From assembly GCF_003334305.1 (NCBI RefSeq), contig NZ_QOWS01000033.1: DNA of 35,452 bases. One strand, written 5' to 3'. Both the position numbers and the translations under genes were made by a program. Under the pieces are notes generated by a model that saw nothing but the letters and a program-made list of their open reading frames with translations, did not search any database and was not told the origin of the DNA. Shown piece by piece: positions 1 through 22,640 of the stretch (position 1 is its first letter; the number at the start of each line of letters is the position of its first letter). This DNA is from Escherichia coli (GTDB lineage Bacteria; Pseudomonadota; Gammaproteobacteria; Enterobacterales; Enterobacteriaceae).

Positions 1-2
1 TT

Positions 3-497
3 GGTTTAGGAGAAGGCTCTGCATTACCGGTTGGGGTGCCTGTTCCGTGGCCTTCAGCCACTCCGCCAACAGGCTGGCTGAAATGCAATGGTGCGGCTTT
101 TTCTGCTGAAGAATACCCGGAACTGGCAAAGGCTTACCCGACCAATAAATTGCCTGATTTACGTGGTGAGTTTATTCGTGGCTGGGATGATGAACGTGGT
201 GTGGATAGTGGGCGAACTCTGCTTTCATCGCAAGGAGATGCTATTCGAAACATTACTGGCGGTTTTGGTCAGTTGCGCGTAAACAGCGAAATTAATGCAA
301 TTGTCGATGTTCAAAGTGTGAGTGGGGCTTTTTACGGAGGTACCTCAGTCCGGAATAACATCAATGTGTCTATGACATACGCTAATGACCGAAAAATCCG
401 ACAAGATGTTCACTTCTCGGCGGCAAATGTTGTTCCAACAGCAAATGAAAATCGTCCACGTAACATCGCCTTTAATTATATTGTGAGGGCCGCATGA
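3..497 (+). CDS. Tail fibre protein, C-terminal variable part (5'-truncated by window edge; constant part lies upstream)
   Basis: Frame is open from position 3; the translation (GLGEGSALPVGVPVPW...GWLKCNGAAFSAEEYPEL...) resembles phage tail-fibre tips; the stop overlaps the start of the next gene (ATGA at 494-497). Confidence 0.65.
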   Translation, partial: GLGEGSALPVGVPVPWPSATPPTGWLKCNGAAFSAEEYPELAKAYPTNKLPDLRGEFIRGWDDERGVDSGRTLLSSQGDAIRNITGGFGQLRVNSEINAIVDVQSVSGAFYGGTSVRNNINVSMTYANDRKIRQDVHFSAANVVPTANENRPRNIAFNYIVRAA

Positions 498-1102
498 TGA
501 ATAAAGCTGTATTAAATAGCAAACTCATTGCCATAAAAGCGGGAGACATTATCATTTATAATTATGATGGTGAAACGCGGGAATATATTTCTACATCAAC
601 TGAATATCTCGCTGTCGGCGTCGGTATCCCGGCATGTTCTTGTTTAGATGCTCCGGGCTCAAACAAAGCTGGTTATGCAATTTGTCGTTCTGTAGATTTA
701 AACTCATGGGAATATGTGCCAGACCATCGCGGTGAAGTTGTCTATAGTACCGAAACGGGAGATACCAAAGAAATCACAGCTCCGGGTGATTACCCTGAAA
801 ATACAACCATTATCGCCCCATTAACGCCATACGATAAATGGGATGGTGAGAAATGGGTGACCGATACTGAGGCACAGCATAGCGCCGCAGTAGACGCGGC
901 AGAAGCACAGCGTCAGTCACTGATTGATGCTGCAATGGCTTCCATCAGTCTGATTCAGCTGAAATTACAGGCCGGACGGAAGTTGATGCAGGCAGAAACA
1001 ACCCGGCTTAACGCCGTGCTGGATTACATTGACGCGGTGACGGCAACAGATACCAGCACCGCGCCTGATATTATTTGGCCTGTATTCCCTGAGACTGATT
1101 AA
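494..1102 (+). CDS. Tail fibre assembly chaperone (Tfa / P2 G-like)
   Basis: 202-aa ORF immediately after the tail-fibre gene with start/stop overlap; position and size fit a tail fibre assembly protein. Confidence 0.65.
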   Translation: MMNKAVLNSKLIAIKAGDIIIYNYDGETREYISTSTEYLAVGVGIPACSCLDAPGSNKAGYAICRSVDLNSWEYVPDHRGEVVYSTETGDTKEITAPGDYPENTTIIAPLTPYDKWDGEKWVTDTEAQHSAAVDAAEAQRQSLIDAAMASISLIQLKLQAGRKLMQAETTRLNAVLDYIDAVTATDTSTAPDIIWPVFPETD

Positions 1103-1292
1103 CCTCAATTAGTATTGGTTCGCCTTTCTCATTAATTGTTAGCTCCATGCCCTGAGGAATTTCTGTCATAGTAAAAAACCAGTTGTCCTCCGGTAATTCA
1201 ATAGCCCCGGTCACGTCATGAAGACCGGGGATTACTTCAGTCAAAGTAACTGGATTAAACAGGCGCACAATAAACCCTCCAGGAAAAAGCAT
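1071..1292 (-). CDS. Alternative (inverted-orientation) short tail fibre assembly protein
   Basis: Minus-strand ORF convergent with the plus-strand assembly gene, downstream of the minus-strand fibre cassette; start placed at an internal Met; arrangement mirrors Mu G-segment / e14 cassettes. Confidence 0.35.
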   Translation of the reverse strand: MLFPGGFIVRLFNPVTLTEVIPGLHDVTGAIELPEDNWFFTMTEIPQGMELTINEKGEPILIEVNQSQGIQAK

Positions 1293-1596
1293 TTGATGAT
1301 GGTCTGCCGTCGTACATCTGGCAGCGGGCATAAAAGCCGGTATTTGTTACCTGATCATCCACGATCATTGAAACATGAACATTATTAGGTGTGCTCTCGT
1401 AATCCGTTCTTATTCTTTCCGCGATACTGATAAAACGTGAAAGTTTAGGCAGTGCAATTGGGTAAACAACTTTAGCCAGTCCATTATCATTAGATCCACC
1501 GGTTCCAAATACTTCTATTGCACCGTCTGACCAGCGTATCCATGCACCATTGGCATTAGCTCCTCGCTGAATGACATATCTGGCTTCTCCCAAACC
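1255..1596 (-). CDS. Alternative tail-fibre C-terminal cassette, promoterless, expressed only after inversion
   Basis: Minus-strand frame encodes ...VGLGEARYVIQRGANANGAWIRW...; the VGLGE junction matches the GLGE junction at the window start; the Met codons at 1638 lie outside the inverted repeat and are probably incidental. Confidence 0.5.
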   Translation of the reverse strand, partial: GLGEARYVIQRGANANGAWIRWSDGAIEVFGTGGSNDNGLAKVVYPIALPKLSRFISIAERIRTDYESTPNNVHVSMIVDDQVTNTGFYARCQMYDGRPSSNAFSWRVYCAPV

Positions 1597-1610
1597 AACG
1601 TTTAAGAAAA
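1585..1610. repeat. Invertase crossover site (hix/gix-like), right end of invertible segment; partner half-site at 1-14
   Basis: 1585-1598 TTCTCCCAAACCAA is the reverse complement of window positions 1-14 (TTGGTTTAGGAGAA) with one mismatch; 1585-1610 has the form TTCTCCCAAACC-AA-CGTTTAAGAAAA, resembling the 12-2-12 Hin/Gin crossover sites. Confidence 0.55.
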
Positions 1611-1659
1611 TGCAGAGGTAACAGCTAACTGGCATCATCTCCGGTTTTTATTCAGGGGG

Positions 1660-2232
1660 ATGATCATGCTTATTGGCTATGTACGCGTGTCAACAAATGA
1701 CCAGAACACCGATTTGCAACGTAATGCACTGAACTGCGCGGGATGTGAGCAGATTTTTGAGGACAAAATCAGTGGCACTAAGTCCGACAGACCGGGGCTG
1801 AAAAAACTACTCAGGACACTATCGGCAGGAGACACGCTGGTTGTCTGGAAGCTGGACAGGTTGGGGCGCAGTATGCGGCATCTTGTTACGCTGATAGAAG
1901 AGTTGCGCCAGCGTGGTGTGAATTTCAGAAGCCTGACTGACAGTATTGATACCAGTACCCCAATGGGTCGTTTCTTTTTTCATGTCATGGGTGCCCTGGC
2001 TGAAATGGAACGCGAACTGATAGTTGAACGTACCAGGGCAGGGCTGGCTGCAGCTCGTGCCAAAGGCAGAGTAGGTGGACGCCGTCCTAAGTTGACCACC
2101 GAACAGTGGGCACAGATTGGGCGTTTACTCGAGGCCGGAGAATCAAGACAGCGTATTGCACTGATTTTTGATGTAGGCGTTTCTACCATTTATAGAAAAT
2201 TTCCGGCAAATAAGATCAATGAATCCCCCTGA
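1660..2232 (+). CDS. Serine DNA invertase (Pin/Gin/Hin/Cin family)
   Basis: N-terminus IGYVRVSTNDQ with the catalytic Ser context, a resolvase-type catalytic domain and a C-terminal HTH (GVSTIYRKF); lies directly beside the right crossover site. Confidence 0.85.
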   Translation: MIMLIGYVRVSTNDQNTDLQRNALNCAGCEQIFEDKISGTKSDRPGLKKLLRTLSAGDTLVVWKLDRLGRSMRHLVTLIEELRQRGVNFRSLTDSIDTSTPMGRFFFHVMGALAEMERELIVERTRAGLAAARAKGRVGGRRPKLTTEQWAQIGRLLEAGESRQRIALIFDVGVSTIYRKFPANKINESP

Positions 2233-2374
2233 ATCAGCATTATGTTGATTATCCCTGCAAGCAGACAAATACCGTTATTTTGTGTGAATAACGACACAAC
2301 TGCGCTTAGCTGTTTGTCAGGCACAATCACTTCAACATAGGGCGAAGCCTAATCCAATCAGGAGGTTCGCCACT

Positions 2375-3547
2375 ATGGCTCAGGATTACCACCACGGGGT
2401 GCGCGTTGTTGAAGTCAACGAAGGCACCCGATCTATTACCACGGTGAGCACCGCCATCGTGGGTATGGTCTGCACGGGCGATGATGCCGATGCAAAAATG
2501 TTTCCTCTTAATAAACCCGTGCTGATCACTGATGTGCTGACTGCCAGCGGTAAAGCGGGTGAGTCAGGTACTCTGGCCCGTTCGCTGGATGCCATCGCTG
2601 ACCAGGCAAAACCCGTGACCATTGTTGTGCGTGTGCCGCAGGGTGAAACGGAAGACGAAACCACGACCAATATCATCGGCGCAGTGACTGCTGAAGGTAA
2701 AAAAACAGGTATGAAAGCCCTGTTATCTGCCCAGTCACAGCTCGGCGTTAAACCGCGCATTCTCGGCGTGCCAGGCCACGACACCAAGGCGGTAGCTACT
2801 GAGTTGCTGAGCGTGGCGCAAAGCCTGCGTGGATTTGCTTACCTGTCAGCGTATGGCTGCAAGACAGTGCAGGAGGCGATCACTTACCGCGAAAACTTCA
2901 GCCAGCGCGAAGGGATGCTGATCTGGCCTGACTTTACTGGCTGGGACACGGTGCTGAATGCCGAAGCAACGGCATATGCCACCGCCCGTGCGCTTGGTCT
3001 GCGCGCCAAAATTGACGAGCAGACCGGATGGCACAAAAGCCTGTCCAACGTGGGCGTGAACGGTGTCACCGGAATTTCTGCAGATGTGTTCTGGGATCTG
3101 CAGGACCCGGCAACCGATGCAGGTCTGCTGAACCAGAACGACGTCACCACGCTTGTGCGTAAAGACGGTTTCCGCTTCTGGGGTTCCCGCTGCCTGAGTG
3201 ATGACCCGCTCTTTGCCTTCGAAAACTACACCCGCACGGCGCAGGTGCTGATGGACACGATGGCAGAAGCACACATGTGGGCGGTGGATAAACCGCTTAA
3301 CCCGTCGCTGGCCCGCGACATTATCGAAGGTATCCGCGCCAAAATGCGCAGCCTGGTCAGTCAGGGCTATCTCATTGGTGGTGATTGCTGGCTGGATGAG
3401 TCGGTGAACGACAAAGACACGCTGAAAGCCGGAAAACTCACCATCGACTACGACTACACGCCAGTGCCGCCACTTGAAAACCTGATGCTGCGTCAGCGCA
3501 TCACCGATCAGTACCTGGTGAATTTCGCCAGCCAGGTCAGCGCGTAA
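2375..3547 (+). CDS. Contractile tail sheath protein (P2 FI-like)
   Basis: 390-aa ORF first in the conserved FI-FII-E-T-U-D order; size and position fit the sheath. Confidence 0.8.
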
Positions 3548-3556
3548 GGGGACAAC

Positions 3557-4072
3557 ATGGCATTACCACGCAAATTAAAACACCTGAACCTGTTTAACGA
3601 CGGGAACAACTGGCAGGGGATCGTTGAGTCGCTGACGCTGCCGAAATTTACCCGCAAATATGAGAAGTATCGCGGCGGCGGAATGCCGGGTGCGGTGGAT
3701 GTGGATCTGGGGCTTGATGACAGTGCGCTGGACACAGAATTTTCCATTGGTGGTACTGAATTGCTGCTGTTTAAACAGATGGGTAAAGCCACGGTGGATG
3801 GCATCCAGCTGCGCTTTACCGGCTCTATTCAGCGTGACGATACCGGGGAAGTGCAGGCCGTGGAGCTTGTCGTGCGTGGACGTCACAAAGAAGTGGATTC
3901 CGGCGAGTGGAAGACGGGCGAAAGCAACACCACCAAAGTGACCAGTACCAACAGCTACGCGAAGCTGACCATCAATGGTGAGGTGCTCTATGAAGTGGAC
4001 CTTATCAACATGGTGGAAATTGTGGACGGTGTGGACCTGATGGAAGCGCACCGCAACGCCCTCGGCCTCTGA
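3557..4072 (+). CDS. Tail tube protein (P2 FII-like)
   Basis: 171-aa ORF directly after the sheath gene. Confidence 0.8.
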   Translation: MALPRKLKHLNLFNDGNNWQGIVESLTLPKFTRKYEKYRGGGMPGAVDVDLGLDDSALDTEFSIGGTELLLFKQMGKATVDGIQLRFTGSIQRDDTGEVQAVELVVRGRHKEVDSGEWKTGESNTTKVTSTNSYAKLTINGEVLYEVDLINMVEIVDGVDLMEAHRNALGL

Positions 4073-4126
4073 TATATCTGAACGGCGCGGGATACCGCGC
4101 CAGAACCCAATTGACAGGACAGCAAA

Positions 4127-4429
4127 ATGAGCGATAAGCAGACTGAAAAGACCATTCAACTGGATACCCCCATCAAGCGCGGTAAAACAGAAATCACCGA
4201 AATTGTGCTGCGTAAACCGCAGTCCGGTGCGCTACGCGGTACACGCCTGCAGGCCATTATGGATATGGATGTAAACGCGATGATGACCGTGATCCCCCGC
4301 ATCTCCAGTCCGGCACTGACTGCACAGGAAATTGCAGAGATGGACCCGGCAGATCTCACTGCCATGTCGGTTGAGGTTGTCACTTTTTTGTTGAAGAAGT
4401 CGGTGCTTGCCGGTTTACCGACAGCCTGA
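4127..4429 (+). CDS. Tail assembly chaperone E
   Basis: 100-aa ORF between tube and tape measure; contains the slippery run TTTTTTG near its 3' end. Confidence 0.75.
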   Translation: MSDKQTEKTIQLDTPIKRGKTEITEIVLRKPQSGALRGTRLQAIMDMDVNAMMTVIPRISSPALTAQEIAEMDPADLTAMSVEVVTFLLKKSVLAGLPTA

Positions 4430-4563
4430 CGGTTGACGATCTGGTGGCAGATATCGCCACCATTTTTCACTGGCCGCCATCCGTTACTGACGTTATGCCG
4501 CTGACCGAAGTGCTGGAATGGCGGTATAAAGCGATTCAGAGAAGCGGGGCCAACGATGAGTGA
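4127..4563 (+). CDS. Tail assembly chaperone E+E' made by a programmed -1 frameshift at TTTTTTG (4384-4390)
   Basis: The -1 frame after the slippery site stays open to a TGA at 4561-4563, encoding ...ADIATIFHWPPSVTDVMPLTEVLEWRYKAIQRSGANDE and overlapping the tape-measure ATG at 4556. Confidence 0.6.
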
Positions 4564-7500
4564 TAACAACCTGCGTCTGCAGGTCATTCTTAATGCGGTT
4601 GACAAGCTCACCCGCCCATTTCGATCTGCGCAGGCCAGTTCAAGAGAACTGGCTGCTGCTGTCAAAAAATCCCGCGATGCAATAAAGCAGCTTGATCAGG
4701 CCGGGAGCAGTCTGGACAGCTTCCGAAAGCTGCAGGCAGAAAATCAGAAATTAGGCGACAGGCTGAACTATGCCCGCCAGCGTGCAAATTTGCTCAGTCA
4801 GGAACTGGGAGCGATGGGGCCGCCTTCGCAACGTCAGGTTGTTGCTCTGGGCCGTCAACGGCTGGCTGTTCAGCGCCTGGAAGAACGCCAGAAAAAGCTG
4901 CAGCAGCAGACGGCGCTTGTGCGTGCTGAACTGTACCGGGCGGGAATTTCTGCGAAAGACGATGCGGGAGCAACTGCCCGTTTAGCCCGTGAAACATCAC
5001 GTTATAACCAGGAACTTTCGAAACAGGAGGCGCGGCTGAAGCGACTGGGGGAAGCTCAGCGCAGGATGAATGCAGCGCGTGCCAGTTATGCCCGTTCGCT
5101 GGAGGTGCGTGATCGTATTGCAGGTGCCGGAGCCACCACCACGGCTGCAGGGCTGGCAATGGGTGCGCCAGTGATGGCGGCAGTAAAAAGCTATACCAGC
5201 ATGGAAGATGCCATGAAAGGTGTGGCAAAGCAGGTCAATGGTCTGCGTGACGATAATGGCAACCGCACTGCACGTTTTTATGAAATGCAGGATGCCATCA
5301 AGGCTGCCAGCGAACAGTTGCCGATGGAAAACGGTGCGGTGGACTTCGCTGCACTGGTTGAAGGTGGTGCGCGCATGAACGTCGCAAACCCTGACGACAG
5401 CTGGGAAGATCAGAAACGTGACCTGCTGGCCTTCGCCAGTACGGCAGCAAAGGCGGCAACAGCCTTTGAGCTGCCAGCGGATGAACTGTCAGAAAGTCTG
5501 GGGAAAATCGCCCAGCTCTACAAAATCCCCACCCGCAATATTGAACAGCTCGGTGATGCGCTGAACTATCTGGATGATAACGCCATGTCGAAAGGGGCAG
5601 ACATCATTGATGTGATGCAACGTCTGGGCGGTGTGGCTGACCGTCTGGATTATCGTAAAGCGGCGGCGCTGGGTTCCACCTTCCTGACACTGGGCGCTGC
5701 GCCGGAGGTTGCAGCCAGTGCAGCAAACGCGATGGTGCGTGAATTGTCCATTGCCACCATGCAAAGCAAGAGTTTCTTTGAAGGGATGAATCTGCTGAAA
5801 CTCAATCCTGAAGTGATTGAAAAGCAGATGACGAAGGATGCGATGGGAACCATCCAGCGCGTGCTGGAGAAGGTAAACGCGCTGCCGCAGGACAAGCGCC
5901 TGTCTGCCATGACTATGTTGTTTGGTAAAGAGTTTGGCGATGACGCGGCGAAACTGGCAAACAACCTGCCGGAACTGCAGCGTCAGTTAAAACTGACAGC
6001 GGGCAATGATGCGCTTGGCTCCATGCAGAAAGAATCCGACATTAACAAGGATTCACTTTCTGCGCAGTGGTTGCTGGTCAAAACCGGAGCGCAGAACACC
6101 TTCAGCAGCCTGGGCGAAACGCTGCGCCAGCCGCTGATGGATATTCTGTACACGGTGAAAAGCGTCACGGGGGCGTTGCGTCGCTGGGTGGAAGCTAACC
6201 CGGAACTGACAGGCACACTGATGAAAGCATCGGCTGTTGTGGCTGCGGTTACCGTCGGCCTCGGCACCTTAGCGGTGGCGCTGGCTGCAGTGCTGGGGCC
6301 GCTGGCAGTGATCCGTCTGGGATTCTCTGTGTTGGGTATCAAAACGTTATCTTCCGTTACGGCAGCAGTAACTCGAACCAGCAGCGCGTTGTCCTGGCTG
6401 GCTGGCGCACCACTGGCACTGCTGCGACGCGGGCTTGCTTCATCGGGCAACGCCGCAGGTTTACTTACTGCGCCGTTGTCGTCTTTGCGCCGCACGGCAT
6501 CACTGACGGGAAATGTCCTGAAAACTGTAGCAGGTGCGCCGGTTGCACTTTTGCGGTCTGGATTATCCGGTTTACGTGCGGTTGCTGTGATGTTTATGAA
6601 TCCACTGGCAGCACTACGCGGCGGGCTGGCTGCCGCAGGCACGGTGCTGCGAGTACTGGCATCTGGTCCACTGGCGATGTTGCGCGTTGCCCTGTATGCC
6701 GTATCTGGTCTGTTAGGTGCTCTGCTCAGTCCGATAGGTCTTGTGGTTACTGCACTGGCGGGTGTGGCACTGGTTGTCTGGAAATACTGGCAACCCATCA
6801 CCGCATTTCTCGGTGGCGTGGTGGAAGGATTCAAAGCGGCGGCAGGTCCCATCAGTGCAGCGTTCGAACCGCTTAAGCCTGTGTTCCAGTGGATTGGTGA
6901 CAAAGTGCAGGCGCTGTGGGGCTGGTTTACTGATCTGCTGACGCCCGTTAAGTCGACTTCTGCCGAACTGCAGAGCGCAGCGGCAATGGGGCGACGATTC
7001 GGGGAGGCACTGGCGGAAGGGCTGAATATGGTCATGCATCCGCTGGACTCCCTGAAATCCGGCGTTTCCTGGTTGCTGGAGAAGCTCGGCATTATCAGTA
7101 AAGAGGCCGCAAAGGCAAAACTGCCGGAAAGCGTGACGCGTCAGCAACCTGCGACGGTGAATGCAGACGGTAAAGTGATGATGCCATCGGGTGGTTTTCC
7201 GTCATGGGGATATGGCTTTGCGGGGATGTATGACAGCGGCGGCTATATCCCGCGCGGGCAGTTTGGCATCGTCGGTGAAAACGGGCCGGAAATTGTTAAC
7301 GGCCCGGCAAATGTGACCAGCCGGAGAAATACAGCTGCACTGGCTGCCGTTGTTGCCGGAATGATGGGCGTTGCTGCCGCGCCTGCAGAGCTTCCACCGT
7401 TGCACCCTTTGGCACTTCCCGCGAAAGGCGGCGAAGCGATGGTGAGTCGTGCAGCCACTGTGCCGCCCGTTCAACGGATTGAGGCACCGATGCAGATCAT

Positions 7501-7633
7501 CATTCAGACGCAGCCAGGACAAAGTGCGCAGGATATTGCGCGGGAGGTGGCCCGCCAGCTTGATGAACGTGAACGCAGGCTGAAGGCAAAAGCCAGGAGT
7601 AACTACAGCGATCAGGGGGGATACGACGCATGA
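4556..7633 (+). CDS. Tail tape measure protein (P2 T-like)
   Basis: 1025-aa ORF with a coiled-coil-like N-terminal region, central hydrophobic Ala/Leu/Gly repeats and the canonical position after E/E'. Confidence 0.85.
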   Translation: MSDNNLRLQVILNAVDKLTRPFRSAQASSRELAAAVKKSRDAIKQLDQAGSSLDSFRKLQAENQKLGDRLNYARQRANLLSQELGAMGPPSQRQVVALGRQRLAVQRLEERQKKLQQQTALVRAELYRAGISAKDDAGATARLARETSRYNQELSKQEARLKRLGEAQRRMNAARASYARSLEVRDRIAGAGATTTAAGLAMGAPVMAAVKSYTSMEDAMKGVAKQVNGLRDDNGNRTARFYEMQDAIKAASEQLPMENGAVDFAALVEGGARMNVANPDDSWEDQKRDLLAFASTAAKAATAFELPADELSESLGKIAQLYKIPTRNIEQLGDALNYLDDNAMSKGADIIDVMQRLGGVADRLDYRKAAALGSTFLTLGAAPEVAASAANAMVRELSIATMQSKSFFEGMNLLKLNPEVIEKQMTKDAMGTIQRVLEKVNALPQDKRLSAMTMLFGKEFGDDAAKLANNLPELQRQLKLTAGNDALGSMQKESDINKDSLSAQWLLVKTGAQNTFSSLGETLRQPLMDILYTVKSVTGALRRWVEANPELTGTLMKASAVVAAVTVGLGTLAVALAAVLGPLAVIRLGFSVLGIKTLSSVTAAVTRTSSALSWLAGAPLALLRRGLASSGNAAGLLTAPLSSLRRTASLTGNVLKTVAGAPVALLRSGLSGLRAVAVMFMNPLAALRGGLAAAGTVLRVLASGPLAMLRVALYAVSGLLGALLSPIGLVVTALAGVALVVWKYWQPITAFLGGVVEGFKAAAGPISAAFEPLKPVFQWIGDKVQALWGWFTDLLTPVKSTSAELQSAAAMGRRFGEALAEGLNMVMHPLDSLKSGVSWLLEKLGIISKEAAKAKLPESVTRQQPATVNADGKVMMPSGGFPSWGYGFAGMYDSGGYIPRGQFGIVGENGPEIVNGPANVTSRRNTAALAAVVAGMMGVAAAPAELPPLHPLALPAKGGEAMVSRAATVPPVQRIEAPMQIIIQTQPGQSAQDIAREVARQLDERERRLKAKARSNYSDQGGYDA

Positions 7634-8115
7634 TGATGGTGCTGGGATTGTACGTGTTTATGCTGCGCACCGTGCCGTATCAGGAGCTGCAGTATCAACG
7701 CAGCTGGCGACATGCGGCAAACAGCCGGGTAAACCGACGTCCGTCCACGCAGTTTCTGGGACCGGACAACGACATGCTGACGCTTTCCGGTGTTCTTATG
7801 CCGGAGATAACAGGTGGCAGGCTGTCGTTGCTGGCACTGGAGCAGATGGCAGAACAGGGGAAAGCATGGCCCCTGATTGAAGGCAGCGGCACGATTTATG
7901 GCATGTATGTGATTGAGGGACTGAATCAGACTAAAACGGAGTTTTTCCGCGACGGTATGCCGCGCCGGATTGAGTTCACCCTGTCGCTCAAACGGGTGGA
8001 TGAATCCCTGTCCGATATGTTCGGTGATCTCAGTGCGCAACTGAATAATCTGCAGGAAACGGCAACGTCTGCCTTAAGCGATATCAGTAAAACGGTGGGA
8101 GGGCTGCTGTCGTGA
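7630..8115 (+). CDS. Tail protein U-like
   Basis: 161-aa ORF whose start overlaps the tape-measure stop; position matches P2 gene U. Confidence 0.75.
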   Translation: MMMVLGLYVFMLRTVPYQELQYQRSWRHAANSRVNRRPSTQFLGPDNDMLTLSGVLMPEITGGRLSLLALEQMAEQGKAWPLIEGSGTIYGMYVIEGLNQTKTEFFRDGMPRRIEFTLSLKRVDESLSDMFGDLSAQLNNLQETATSALSDISKTVGGLLS

Positions 8116-9212
8116 ATTTCAGCTCTGAACTGCTTAACAAAAGCAACAAAACTCCGGCATTCAGCATCAGTATTGAGGGCAGGGATATCACTACTGTGCT
8201 GGATAACCGCCTGATGAGTCTGACTCTGACGGACAATCGGGGCTTTGAAGCAGACCAGCTTGATCTGGAGCTGGACGATGCCGACGGGAAAATCGTGCTG
8301 CCGCGCCGTGGTGCGGTCATTACGCTGGCGCTGGGCTGGAAGGGGCAGCCGCTTTTCCCGAAAGGGGCATTCACGGTGGACGAGATTGAACACACTGGCG
8401 CACCGGACCGCCTGACTATCCGGGCGCGAAGTGCTGATTTTCGGGAAACGCTGAATACCCGCCGTGAAAAATCGTGGCACAAGACCACCATTGGGGAAGT
8501 GGTGAAGGAGATAGCCGCGCGGCACAAGCTGAAGATGGTACTGGGTAAAGACCTGTCGGATAAGCTCGTGGAGCATATAGACCAGACTAATGAGAGTGAC
8601 GGTAGTTTTCTGATGCGGCTGGCGCGCCAGTACGGTGCTATTGCGTCGGTGAAAAATGGCAATCTGTTATTCATCCGGCAGGGACAGGGCAAAAGTGCCA
8701 GCGGTAAACCACTGCCGGTGATCACTATCACACGTAAGGACGGCGACAGTCACCGCTTTACCCTGGCAGATCGCGGAGCCTATACGGGCATAATTGCCAG
8801 CTGGTTGCATACCCGCGAACCCGCGAAGAAAGAAAGCACCACGGTGAAGCGTAAGCGCAGGACTAAGAAGCAGAAGAAAGAGCCGGAAGCGAAGCAGGGC
8901 GATTACCTGGTGGGTACGGATGAAAACGTGCTGGTACTTAATCGCACTTATGCCAACCGGAGCAACGCTGAACGGGCAGCGAAAATGCAGTGGGAACGCC
9001 TGCAACGCGGCGTTGCGTCATTCTCGCTACAACTGGCGGAAGGGCGGGCAGATCTCTACACGGAAATGCCAGTGAAAGTCAGTGGCTTTAAACAGCCGAT
9101 AGATGATGCGGAATGGACCATTACGACTCTGACACATACCGTCAGCCCGGATAATGGTTTTACGACCAGTCTTGAGCTTGAAGTGAAGGTTGATGATCTC
9201 GAAATGGAATGA
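8112..9212 (+). CDS. Tail protein D-like (late tail gene)
   Basis: 366-aa ORF with a GTG start overlapping the U stop; position matches P2 gene D. Confidence 0.75.
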   Translation: MNFSSELLNKSNKTPAFSISIEGRDITTVLDNRLMSLTLTDNRGFEADQLDLELDDADGKIVLPRRGAVITLALGWKGQPLFPKGAFTVDEIEHTGAPDRLTIRARSADFRETLNTRREKSWHKTTIGEVVKEIAARHKLKMVLGKDLSDKLVEHIDQTNESDGSFLMRLARQYGAIASVKNGNLLFIRQGQGKSASGKPLPVITITRKDGDSHRFTLADRGAYTGIIASWLHTREPAKKESTTVKRKRRTKKQKKEPEAKQGDYLVGTDENVLVLNRTYANRSNAERAAKMQWERLQRGVASFSLQLAEGRADLYTEMPVKVSGFKQPIDDAEWTITTLTHTVSPDNGFTTSLELEVKVDDLEME

Positions 9213-9302
9213 TTCTTCACAATGGAGAACTTTTAAGTTTGAAAAATGGAATAATGCGATATCATTATTGTGAATTTAGCAAAAATGGGGAGAACTCGAA
9301 AA

Positions 9303-9521
9303 ATGATGATTTGCCCACTGTGTGGAAGTGCCGCCCATACTCGCAGCAGTTTTCAGGTATCTTCATTGACCAAAGAGCGTTACAACCAGTGCCAGAACAT
9401 TAACTGCAGCCATACTTTTGTTACCCATGAAACTTTTGTTCGTTCGATTGCAACGCCAAAAGAGTCAAATCCGGTTCAGCCGCATCCTCATAAATTTAAA
9501 CAGGTGGGTTTGCCGATTTAA
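9303..9521 (+). CDS. ogr: Ogr/Delta-type zinc-finger late transcription activator
   Basis: CPLCGSAAHTRSS...YNQCQNINCSHTF is a C4 zinc-finger pattern like P2 Ogr; start placed at the Met preceding CPLC, with a GGGAGA Shine-Dalgarno upstream. Confidence 0.75.
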   Translation: MMICPLCGSAAHTRSSFQVSSLTKERYNQCQNINCSHTFVTHETFVRSIATPKESNPVQPHPHKFKQVGLPI

Positions 9522-9585
9522 ATGGCGACATAACTACATGATTTAAAACTATACTTTTCTATAAGTTGAGGTTAAATTAACAATG

Positions 9586-9762
9586 CCTGACGTTAGCGGG
9601 GATTTATCCCCACTCCGTAGATATGTAGTTTGTCGCTTTGCGACTGCGGACCGATTACCTGATTGCCATGTAATCGGACGCCGACTTGTTAAGCTTTCTG
9701 GGCTAACTGGTTGTTATTTTTTATTTAGTTAGGGCCATGCGCTTGCGCTAAGAGACGTCAGG
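9586..9762 (+). ncRNA. Candidate structured non-coding RNA upstream of the reverse transcriptase (retron msr/msd-like or DRT-type ncRNA)
   Basis: Long-range inverted repeat CCTGACGTTAGCG (9586-9598) with CGCTA-AGAG-ACGTCAGG (9746-9762) enclosing hairpins at 9598-9611, 9632-9644 and 9651-9677; no convincing ORF inside. Confidence 0.4.
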
Positions 9763-9782
9763 TATCTATGGAGGAACAAGTT

Positions 9783-9956
9783 ATGGATACAAACGAACTT
9801 GGCTTAGTTAAGGCGCGTGTTGAACTGATCACCGCTATGCTCAAATGCGCAACCGCGTTTGTTGGCTTAGTTGGTGCGGTTTACGCCGTTCTTAACATGG
9901 CCTTCAACTACAACAATTTAACTCATGACAATAGAAGTTCAAAGGTGGGAAGATAA
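9783..9956 (+). CDS. Small hypothetical protein with one hydrophobic helix (possible small effector, or frameshifted RT N-terminus)
   Basis: Only open frame across 9768-9956; GGAGGA Shine-Dalgarno about 7 nt before the ATG at 9783; hydrophobic stretch AFVGLVGAVYAVLNMAF; overlaps the RT start by about 30 nt in another frame. Confidence 0.3.
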   Translation: MDTNELGLVKARVELITAMLKCATAFVGLVGAVYAVLNMAFNYNNLTHDNRSSKVGR

Positions 9957-10698
9957 ATTTGAGATTAAGCCCGGGGTTTGGGTTTATGTCCCAAGCGTTG
10001 AGGCACGTAAAGTCGGAGGGAAGATACTTCAGGCTGTCAGAAACAAGTGGATTCCGCCACTCTATTTTTACCATCTAAGAACTGGTGGGCATCTTAAAGC
10101 TGCCAGATTACACTTAAAAAGTGATTTTTTTGCCGTTGTTGATATTAAACAATTTTTTCAGTCAACGAGCCGTAGTCGTATCACCCGTGATCTAAAGAGC
10201 TACTTCACCTATTCTCAAGCGCGGGAAATCTCAACATTTTCAACTGTAAGAAACTTGTCCCATAGTCCACATAAGCATGTCCTCCCTTTTGGTTTTGTTC
10301 AATCTCCAATACTTGCAACCCTCTGCTTAGATAAAAGTTATTTTGGTAGCTTACTACGCCGATTGAACAAACATCATGATCTCAAGCTAAGTGTGTTTAT
10401 GGATGATGTGATCATCTCGTCAAACGATTTGGCCCAATTACAAGCGGCTTACGACGAAGCACTAGTGGCAATGCGTAAATCTGGTTATCAAGCCAACATG
10501 AGTAAAACTCAGGCACCATCGTCAAAGATTAGCGTGTTTAATTTAACTTTGAGTAAGGGAGTTATGAAAGTCACATCTCAGAAAATGAGTGACTTCCTGA
10601 TTGATTTCTATTCAAGCAATTATGAGCCGCACAGAATAGGGGTCAAAAACTACGTCGAAGCTGTTAATCCAGGGCAAGCGAAACTCTTTAAGTTGTAA
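9925..10698 (+). CDS. Compact reverse transcriptase (retron/Abi/DRT-like RT domain)
   Basis: RT motifs readable in the translation: fingers FEIKPGVWVYVPS, motif A VVDIKQFFQS, motif B LPFGFVQSPILATLCL, catalytic YxDD box FMDD; AT-rich with rare codons (AGA, ATA, CTA). Confidence 0.75.
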   Translation: MTIEVQRWEDKFEIKPGVWVYVPSVEARKVGGKILQAVRNKWIPPLYFYHLRTGGHLKAARLHLKSDFFAVVDIKQFFQSTSRSRITRDLKSYFTYSQAREISTFSTVRNLSHSPHKHVLPFGFVQSPILATLCLDKSYFGSLLRRLNKHHDLKLSVFMDDVIISSNDLAQLQAAYDEALVAMRKSGYQANMSKTQAPSSKISVFNLTLSKGVMKVTSQKMSDFLIDFYSSNYEPHRIGVKNYVEAVNPGQAKLFKL

Positions 10699-10806
10699 TT
10701 GCGATCGCATGTAGTAGCAACTGGGCTTGACTGAATGTCTGCCGCCATTTTGCCGCCACTACTAAAGAAAAAAGGGCTACGCTTTCACGTAACCCCTTGA
10801 TTTATT

Positions 10807-11169
10807 TGGTGGAGCTGGCGGGAGTTGAACCCGCGTCCGAAATTCCTACATCCTCGGTACTACATGCTTAGTCAGTCTTTACATTCGCTTGCCAGCTGCG
10901 GACGGACACGCCACTAACAAACTAGCCTGATTAAGTTTTAACGCTTCAACCCCAGGCAGGGCTTCCACGCGATCTCTTTTGGGTTTGACCTCTCTTGATC
11001 CCCGTCCTAAGAGCGGAGGCTAGGGAGAGAGGGCTCTAAGCAGGTTATTAAGCTGCTAAAGCGTAGTTTTCGTCGTTTGCGACTATTTTTTGCGGCTTTT
11101 TACGAGGCCAACCGCCCCTCGGCATGCACCTTGGGTTTCGCAAATCCCGTCGAATCCAGAATCAGCCCC
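10807..11169 (-). ncRNA. ssrA: tmRNA (SsrA)
   Basis: Reverse complement matches E. coli tmRNA from GGGGCTGATTCTGG (5' end at 11169) to GCTCCACCA (3' end at 10807), including the tag-coding region. Confidence 0.95.
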
Positions 11170-11383
11170 AATGTGTAAAGGTAAGTATACCAGATTTATG
11201 AGCGCCATGACCAGCCTCAATGGCGTTATCGTTAAAGATTTAGCACCCATGTAGCCTGATTTTTATTCGATTAAGCAATGGGATGGCAACATTTGTGTCG
11301 GATGTGATAGCCAATAAGATGTTCATTCGCGCCGCCGGAGAGGGAGGCGCGGTGAGGAACTGGTCAATAATTGGAGTGCAGGT

Positions 11384-11866
11384 TTAACGGTGGGCGTTTT
11401 TCATGATACGTGCTTTATCCACCTGCCATTCGCGTTCTTTGATATCTGAACGTTTATCGTGCTGTTTTTTACCTTTGGCGACGCCGATTTTCACTTTGCA
11501 CCAGGCATTTTTCCAGTACAGGGAGAGCGCCACTACGGTATAGCCTTCTCGATTGACGCGACCGTACAATGAGTCCAGTTCGCGTTGGTTGAGAAGTAAC
11601 TTGCGGGTACGGGTAGGATCGCACACCACATGCGTGGAGGCCACGGCCATTGGCGTGATGTTAGCGCCAAACAGAAATGCCTCTCCGTCACGCAGAAGGA
11701 CGTAGCTGTCGCTGATATTGGCTTTTCCTGCGCGCAGGGATTTAACCTCCCAGCCTTGCAGGGCAAGTCCCGCTTCGAACTCTTCTTCGATAAAGTATTC
11801 GTGACGGGCGCGCTTGTTAAGCGCGATGGTCGCTGAACCAGGTTTATGTGCTTTTTTCTTCGTCAT
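11384..11866 (-). CDS. smpB: SsrA-binding protein SmpB
   Basis: 160-aa translation is the recognisable SmpB sequence; lies directly upstream of ssrA on the same strand. Confidence 0.95.
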
Positions 11867-22579: not shown

Positions 22580-22607
22580 GATTTCGCTTAAGCGACATCC
22601 TGTTAAG

Positions 22608-22640
22608 AAGGGCTGGCCAATTGGCTGGCCCTTTTTTTAT
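22608..22640 (+). terminator. Rho-independent terminator after rplS
   Basis: GGGCTGGCCAATTGGCTGGCCC hairpin followed by TTTTTTT. Confidence 0.6.

Follow-up and report, generated by a model that had tools for sequence, protein, structure and literature searches.

Within the window, which is the whole stretch of 35,452 nucleotides of Escherichia coli DNA analysed here, a convergent spacer of exactly 108 bp (10699-10806) separates the stop codon of a reverse transcriptase (RT) gene from the 3' end of the tmRNA gene ssrA, as set out in the preliminary description. The RT ORF (9925-10698, plus strand) codes for 257 aa, ends with the stop codon TAA at 10696-10698 and is assigned to Pfam RVT_1 (2.4e-21). 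On the other side, ssrA (10807-11169, minus strand) is recognized by ARAGORN and by Rfam (295.8 bits) and specifies the tag peptide ANDENYALAA, while smpB (11384-11866, minus strand) lies beyond it. This ssrA-smpB part of the window is matched by 5,426 of 5,426 complete E. coli genomes. To the left of the RT gene are phage gene D (8112-9212, plus strand) and the late-gene activator ogr (9303-9521, plus strand; PHROG 603, E = 4.6e-27), which is the last conserved phage gene ahead of a cargo slot and whose equivalent position in E. coli C2 is annotated as ogr/Delta-like. The cargo between ogr and the attachment site (9522-10737, plus strand) comprises a structured non-coding region (about 9585-9764), a 57-aa hydrophobic ORF (9783-9956), the RT ORF and a tail of 39 bp. 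Further to the left, a 190-aa ORF (1660-2232) corresponds to the 'recombinase family protein' of the C2 prophage and has tail-fibre assembly genes nearby in both orientations; this locus is a P2-type invertible tail-fibre segment.

Read outward from ssrA, the proposed order of elements in the spacer is an 8-nt 3' trailer (AAUAAAUC; 10799-10806, minus strand) leading from the mature CCA end of the tmRNA to a hairpin, a predicted intrinsic terminator for ssrA formed by this hairpin and its U-tract (10762-10798, minus strand), two tandem 11-bp arm-type repeats as putative integrase-binding sites (10740-10761), and the cassette-specific tail (10699 to about 10737, plus strand), which includes the palindrome TGCGATCGCA (10700-10709) and the sequence GTAGTAGCAAC (10711-10721). 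The A-run (10764-10773) and the sequence GGGCTACGCTTTCACGTAACCCCTT that follows it (10774-10798), both pointed out in the preliminary description, are present.

The attachment core and the arm-type repeats

The arm-type repeats had been missed by the preliminary description and were found by a repeat search, in which TGCCGCCA occurs twice in direct tandem, at 10740 and 10751, with an 11-bp spacing. The two sites read TGCCGCCATTT and TGCCGCCACTA (TGCCGCCAttt and TGCCGCCActa), and both match the arm-site consensus of the 186-group integrases, tgccGCCActt (Nilsson et al. 2011, PMC3448106). C2 (L003, ~6134-6158), SopEPhi, Cartapus and MLG42 have a matching repeat pair on their int-side arm, some 95 bp away from the core; at least two direct repeats of the tgccGCCActt type are present on each side of the core, the int side having been read in these same genomes. 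In the Cronobacter phage ESSI-2, hairpin and 45-bp core are the same, yet each of the two arms bears TGGAC-containing, P2-like repeats instead. Such a joint swap on the two arms is good evidence, by comparison, for the repeats being integrase arm sites, and the N-terminal domain of the integrase would bind the TGCCGCCAnnn repeats during excision and integration.

Between the core and the arm sites lies a candidate IHF site (10790-10802, minus strand), a perfect match (AATCAAGGGGTTA) to the consensus WATCAANNNNTTR, which could act as a bend site between arm repeats and core. Matches to this consensus number 4 in 35 kb, one of them at this position, against 1.65 expected, and the site carries one mismatch in the arms of Fels-2, SopEPhi and 500465-1; it is retained as a lead only. 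The first arm-type site also takes part in a 9-nt inverted repeat, complementary at 8 of 9 positions, that pairs 10739-10747 (CTGCCGCCA) with 10816-10824 (TGGCGGGAG) in the tmRNA acceptor/T-arm portion of the core and that is probably due to chance.

The far end of the prophage lies outside the window, and attL was read in other strains whose attR is identical. E. coli C2 is 100% identical to the window over 9200-11400, and the whole prophage can be read there. A query with window positions 10650-10950 against the C2 locus returned one other copy, an exact 45-bp match to 10807-10851, located about 35 kb away (L003, 5996-6040). This identity block (TGGTGGAGCTGGCGGGAGTTGAACCCGCGTCCGAAATTCCTACAT, minus strand) is made up of the 3'-terminal 45 nt of ssrA. 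The preliminary description had placed the attachment core in the spacer and had proposed a comparison with the far end of the prophage as the way to locate it; that comparison puts the start of the direct repeat at 10807, inside ssrA and outside the spacer, and no spacer sequence occurs at the C2 attL. The C2 copy lies beyond the prophage integrase gene and two cargo genes and directly adjoins a CP4-57-like island with an integrase of its own, which stands in tandem with the prophage. On its phage side the copy runs on as ACCATTTTTATC, on the opposite side it enters a different terminator, GCCCACACAGCACAAGCTCTGCGGGCTTTTTT, and the flanks of the repeat diverge at once on both sides. In two other genomes with the RT, OY754371 and 2020N21-246, a junction search located the core joined to the int-side arm at a distance of 35-36 kb from attR. 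In strain A28, whose attR is identical, no int-side junction is found at the expected distance, where IS elements and unrelated genes are present, thus indicating that some attR carriers hold rearranged prophages.

The same limits are seen in phage genomes. In the unintegrated genomes of Cartapus (L014) and MLG42 (L017) the 45 bp stand between CCCCTTGATTTATT and ACCATTTTTA, in the order ogr-side arm, 45 bp, int-side arm and int, and just these 45 bp are held in common with ssrA. The records of SopEPhi, whose att site was taken from GenBank/RefSeq annotations and from Nilsson et al. 2011 (PMC3448106), and of RE-2010 stop exactly at the inner edge of the block (...CCTACAT), and that of SopEPhi starts with TT followed by the 45 bp. 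In the Fels-2 RefSeq record attP is split into 23 and 24 bp, which corresponds here to 47 bp, that is, the 45-bp block and 2 nt. SopEPhi and Fels-2 have been reported to integrate into ssrA (PMC3448106), and over 335 aa the Int of the C2 prophage, encoded outside the window, shares 91% identity with that of SopEPhi. The arrangement seen in C2 is the standard signature of integration into tRNA and tmRNA genes, in which the gene is restored at one end of the element and a displaced 3' fragment marks the opposite end (Islander, PMC4383910).

From these alignments we infer that strand exchange takes place somewhere within 10807-10851. As the phage carries an exact copy of the ssrA 3' end, its integration regenerates an intact tmRNA gene, and the far junction in this strain would be expected to read ...TGGTGGAGC...CCTACAT, then ACCATTTTTA, with the TGyCGCCA pair about 95 bp further on. 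A core located within 10699-10806, which would make the spacer the site of the sequence shared by attP and attB and of the crossover, is very improbable. It could appeal to the Salmonella phage RE-2010, whose annotated terminal repeat of 84 bp takes in 39 bp corresponding to window positions ~10768-10806, and to the decayed arms present in 3,118 of 5,426 E. coli genomes, a fossil of which, if it abutted ssrA, would stretch the repeat into the spacer; where a decayed arm copy abuts the host ssrA, the repeat can indeed extend into the spacer equivalent. Against this placement stand the exact limits of the C2 repeat with its immediately differing flanks, the 45 bp that alone are common to free phage genomes and ssrA, the 47 bp annotated as attP in Fels-2, and the occurrence of spacer sequence after ssrA only where the phage arm is present. 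With the core within ssrA, the boundary of the prophage is fixed, as it ends inside the gene at 10807-10851; therefore, the DNA from ogr through the RT cassette to 10806 is phage DNA and would leave with the phage. The spacer is thus the ogr-side arm of the phage attachment site, now part of attR.

The decayed copies mentioned above comprise arm and hairpin together with the initial ~13 nt of the core, and they include one in K-12 MG1655 (2783464-2783543; L011, 3001-3080), between ypjB and pinH, in which the arm repeats are degenerate, the hairpin has one broken pair and TGGTGGGCTGGC is present. Such a copy looks like the fossil of an old Fels-2-like integration at ssrA that was displaced by later islands. 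In E. coli FDN-24 (L007, 5918-5969) the RT cassette and the arm are joined to a fossil-type core (TGGTGGGCTG) that is followed by a SIR2-family gene and not by ssrA, a junction that suggests recombination between a live arm and a fossil arm.

The reverse transcriptase cassette between ogr and the arm

The preliminary description had asked whether the RT cassette is inside the prophage or is a separate insertion and had pointed to an att repeat upstream of 9530 as the finding that would place it outside. No copy of the ssrA 3' end occurs in window positions 1-10806, which contain only chance matches of 10-11 nt, and the cassette is located between ogr and the arm sites, hence inside the prophage. 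In particular, the RT gene is separated from ssrA by the arm sites and the terminator, which in free phage genomes adjoin the core without a break. Because arm sites, terminator and core to the right of the cassette form an intact attP arm, the cassette falls between attL and attR.

The interval between ogr and the arm is variable in content among related phages. Fels-2 and SopEPhi have nothing there beyond the ogr terminator, whereas Cartapus, 500465-1 and MLG42 have a 160-aa minus-strand ORF and Klebsiella phages have small ORFs. The RT cassette is absent from Fels-2, SopEPhi, 500465-1 and Cartapus and is present in this interval in Klebsiella Kp4845-2 with 99.4% identity. A cassette of 87% identity lies between ogr and the pair TGCCGCCAtttTGTCGCCA in a prophage at the ybjL site; the core of this prophage is different, and the tail behind its RT stop is unrelated. 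A by-product of this analysis is the definition of the RT cassette as mobile cargo, placed in a variable slot beside attP. The slot on the other side of attP, from the int-side arm to int, is likewise variable: it contains two hypothetical proteins in C2 (L003, 6154-8529), a RES-domain protein in Cartapus (L014, 2038-3243) and the YopC-like orfY in SopEPhi (L010, 161-1372). In at least 7 of about 28 E. coli carriers of the cassette, ogr and the small ORF are separated by an inserted IS421 element (IS4 family, ~1.35 kb; window 9522-9782 against L007 3323-4932), which falls in the candidate non-coding RNA region and probably disrupts it.

The tail of the cassette has been observed only together with the RT cassette, both in the window and in Klebsiella Kp4845-2, and homology to the arms of other phages starts at 10734-10745. 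One T (10699) after the RT stop, it opens with the perfect 10-bp palindrome TGCGATCGCA, which includes a GATC Dam site, belongs to the cassette alone and is missing from the ybjL-site variant. The short inverted repeat noted in the preliminary description, GTAGTAG (10711-10717) with CTACTA (10759-10764), is present; it is not significant, as only 6 bp are perfectly complementary and about one such pair is expected per 108 bp by our estimate. The pair was not reported by the repeat search at a minimum length of 7 bp. As minus-strand RNA it can form 11 pairs, three of them G-U (z = -2.55, 2 of 200 shuffles), and on the plus strand z is -0.17. The left arm belongs to cassette-specific DNA, the right arm to a conserved integrase arm site, so that the pairing is absent from arms with other cargo. 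A functional hairpin at this position was considered and judged to be chance or marginal, since its arms consist of an integrase site and cargo DNA and it lies beyond a strong terminator.

These features bear on a rival view of the cassette as a mobile element in its own right that entered between prophage and ssrA, or that has ends of its own in the spacer, with the inverted repeat or TGCGATCGCA as boundary or terminator. The 39-bp tail (10699-10737) does travel with the cassette in the window and in Kp4845-2, the 11-pair helix on the minus-strand RNA could be taken as an end structure, and the cassette is found in phages of different att specificities and in non-P2 contexts. Yet the DNA on its right is an intact attP arm, no flanking direct repeats or terminal inverted repeats were found around the cassette, and the tail of the ybjL-site copy is unrelated, which therefore leaves no conserved end element, while the helix lies beyond a strong terminator on its strand and borrows one of its arms from an integrase site. 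An independent insertion is accordingly highly unlikely, and the cassette is best regarded as cargo carried inside the prophage.

The RT cassette is a more interesting object than the spacer. It is retron-like and yet unclassified, as no retron, DRT or Abi model fits at the family level: the RT reaches 49.5 bits with the NCBIfam model retron_St85_RT, whose cut-off is 235, and 63 bits with RT_VI, the best of the PADLOC models, and a search of 9450-10900 against Rfam at a permissive threshold returned the tmRNA alone, with no msr match. Upstream of the RT, a long-range inverted repeat pairs GCCTGACGTTAGCG (9585-9598) with CGCTAAGAGACGTCAGG (9748-9764) in a region of about 180 nt that folds with z = -2.86, and this structured region shows few differences, as judged by eye, between two cassettes with 87% overall DNA identity. 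The 57-aa hydrophobic ORF overlaps the start of the RT ORF, and a small partner ORF, of 52-57 aa, recurs with the Serratia homologue described below. The RT homologues form a coherent, unnamed family, mostly of 244-270 aa and largely from Enterobacterales; a Serratia homologue of 50% identity has a partner ORF of 52 aa and lies at a prophage end next to ybjL. A tentative reading, which we regard as possible rather than probable, is that the arm sites form the right-hand limit of a cargo slot extending from ogr to the attP arm in 186-type P2-like phages, occupied here, at the prophage end, by an undescribed retron-like anti-phage system made up of a compact RT, a 57-aa peptide and a conserved structured RNA. 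Such a slot would differ from the hotspot that Rousset et al. surveyed (PMC9122126), which lies between the portal (Q) and replication (A) genes; that study also cites two variable loci described earlier.

The hairpin downstream of ssrA

The preliminary description had expected the ssrA terminator in the spacer, and a terminator-like structure is indeed found there, at 10762-10798. On the minus strand it consists of a 12-bp stem (10771-10798), AAGGGGUUACGU-GAAA-GCGUAGCCCUUU, in which GAAA forms the loop, followed by UUUCUUU (the tract UUUUUUCUUU), and it is the sole terminator-like call in the spacer. Its stability depends on the strand, as the minus-strand fold reaches -17.1 kcal/mol (z = -4.8, equalled by 0 of 200 shuffles) and the plus-strand fold -8.8 kcal/mol (z = -2.05), and the same holds for the fold of the whole spacer, with -40 kcal/mol (z = -4.75) on the minus strand compared with -25 kcal/mol (z = -0.84) on the plus strand. 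The pairing is conserved, as 99% of the cells are paired across 10 distinct variants and a single broken pair is seen, in the decayed K-12 copy. The nine changes in the hairpin among these variants are all one-sided and compatible with G-U pairing, whereas their plus-strand equivalents would be A-C mismatches; double-compensatory changes do not occur across the 10 variants. On the plus strand, no terminator for the RT gene was called in the spacer.

The origin of the hairpin was examined by scanning one genome per species, from about 120 species, for the 3'-terminal 26 nt of ssrA. Among the 121 copies, 3 have the hairpin behind them, each with phage arm repeats alongside: one in Citrobacter, with 186-type repeats and the ogr terminator behind them, and those of Photorhabdus thracensis (L064) and of L133, with repeats of the (T/C)CCAC type as judged by eye. 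The hairpin is also present in the packaged or unintegrated genomes of Cartapus, MLG42 and ESSI-2. In a sample of 30 E. coli records spread over 5,434 that match, homology to the window breaks at 10802-10807 in 27. Thus, the rarity of the hairpin after ssrA, its constant association with arm repeats and its presence in packaged phage genomes indicate that it is phage-borne and not native. That the hairpin might instead be the native chromosomal terminator of ssrA, with the phage integrated beyond it, is extremely improbable: its position 8 nt past the tmRNA 3' end, its conservation across E. coli, Salmonella, Klebsiella, Cronobacter and Citrobacter and its retention in ESSI-2, where the arm-site type changes, would suit such an origin, but it resides within free phage genomes, accompanies ssrA across species only together with phage arm repeats, is replaced by divergent sequence from 10802-10807 onward in the sampled E. 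coli genomes, and does not follow the displaced ssrA fragment of C2, which precedes GCCCACACAGCACAAGCTCTGCGGGCTTTTTT.

Each element that occupies ssrA brings its own terminator, and the phage-borne hairpin would replace whichever terminator preceded integration. The formation of the tmRNA 3' end in this strain would depend on the predicted terminator that the phage supplies. A hairpin in the corresponding position is also seen in 186-type phages at the 3' end of rplS (613R3, L018 ~1830-1905; SI22/SW9, L019), where TGCCGCCA repeats, the hairpin and the last rplS codons follow one another; its outer stem is the same as that of the ssrA-arm hairpin (GGGG...CCCC) and its inner stem is different. 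The native rplS terminator within the window (22600-22640) is alike in architecture and different in sequence, and this comparison is uninformative.

Relation to known integration systems

Collectively, the left part of the window very probably represents the tail end of a P2-like prophage of the Fels-2/SopEPhi type, with a 186-type integrase, inserted in the 3' end of ssrA, and the spacer its ogr-side attR arm. A copy of the 3' end of the target gene, a terminator of its own and arm repeats are textbook features of phages that integrate into tRNA and tmRNA genes. The layout of the spacer is already known from Fels-2 and SopEPhi and from 186-type integrases, with nothing new in its design, and the spacer shows every testable defining feature of an ogr-side attR arm of this type apart from the core, which it does not contain.

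Fels-2 and SopEPhi (Felsduovirus), which occupy ssrA in Salmonella, have the same 45-bp core from the ssrA 3' end, an integrase of 91% identity and ogr as the last gene before the site. Their ogr-side arm is 92.6% identical to the window over 10739-10806, including both TGyCGCCA repeats and the hairpin, whose outermost stem pair is G-U in the window and G-C in Fels-2 and SopEPhi. The window differs from them in its host, E. coli, and in the 1.2 kb of cargo, that is, the RT cassette with its 39-bp tail, between ogr and the arm sites, a position at which Fels-2 and SopEPhi have only the ogr terminator and a third copy of the repeat. Phages with 186-type integrases appear, from the sequence match, to share the arm consensus with the spacer repeats, although phage 186 itself targets a tRNA-Ile gene.

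CP4-57 and other P4-type islands resemble the prophage in that they also lie at the 3' end of ssrA, regenerate the gene and bring their own downstream terminator. They differ in the integrase family, in the arm sequence and in the position of int, which adjoins ssrA in the islands and lies at the far end here. The excision of CP4-57 causes a 1-nt deletion (U357) that inactivates tmRNA and switches ribosome rescue pathways (PMC10107115). Unlike that of CP4-57, excision of the present prophage should leave ssrA intact, because the displaced 45-bp copy is exact in C2.

In the P' arm of lambda attP, the core is followed by the H' IHF site and by the tandem arm sites P'1-P'3. By analogy, the spacer may follow the same logic and order, with the core, a candidate IHF site and tandem repeats about one helical turn apart, although the two share no sequence relationship. 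What sets the present arm apart from that of lambda is that the DNA between these sites doubles as the predicted terminator of the target gene.
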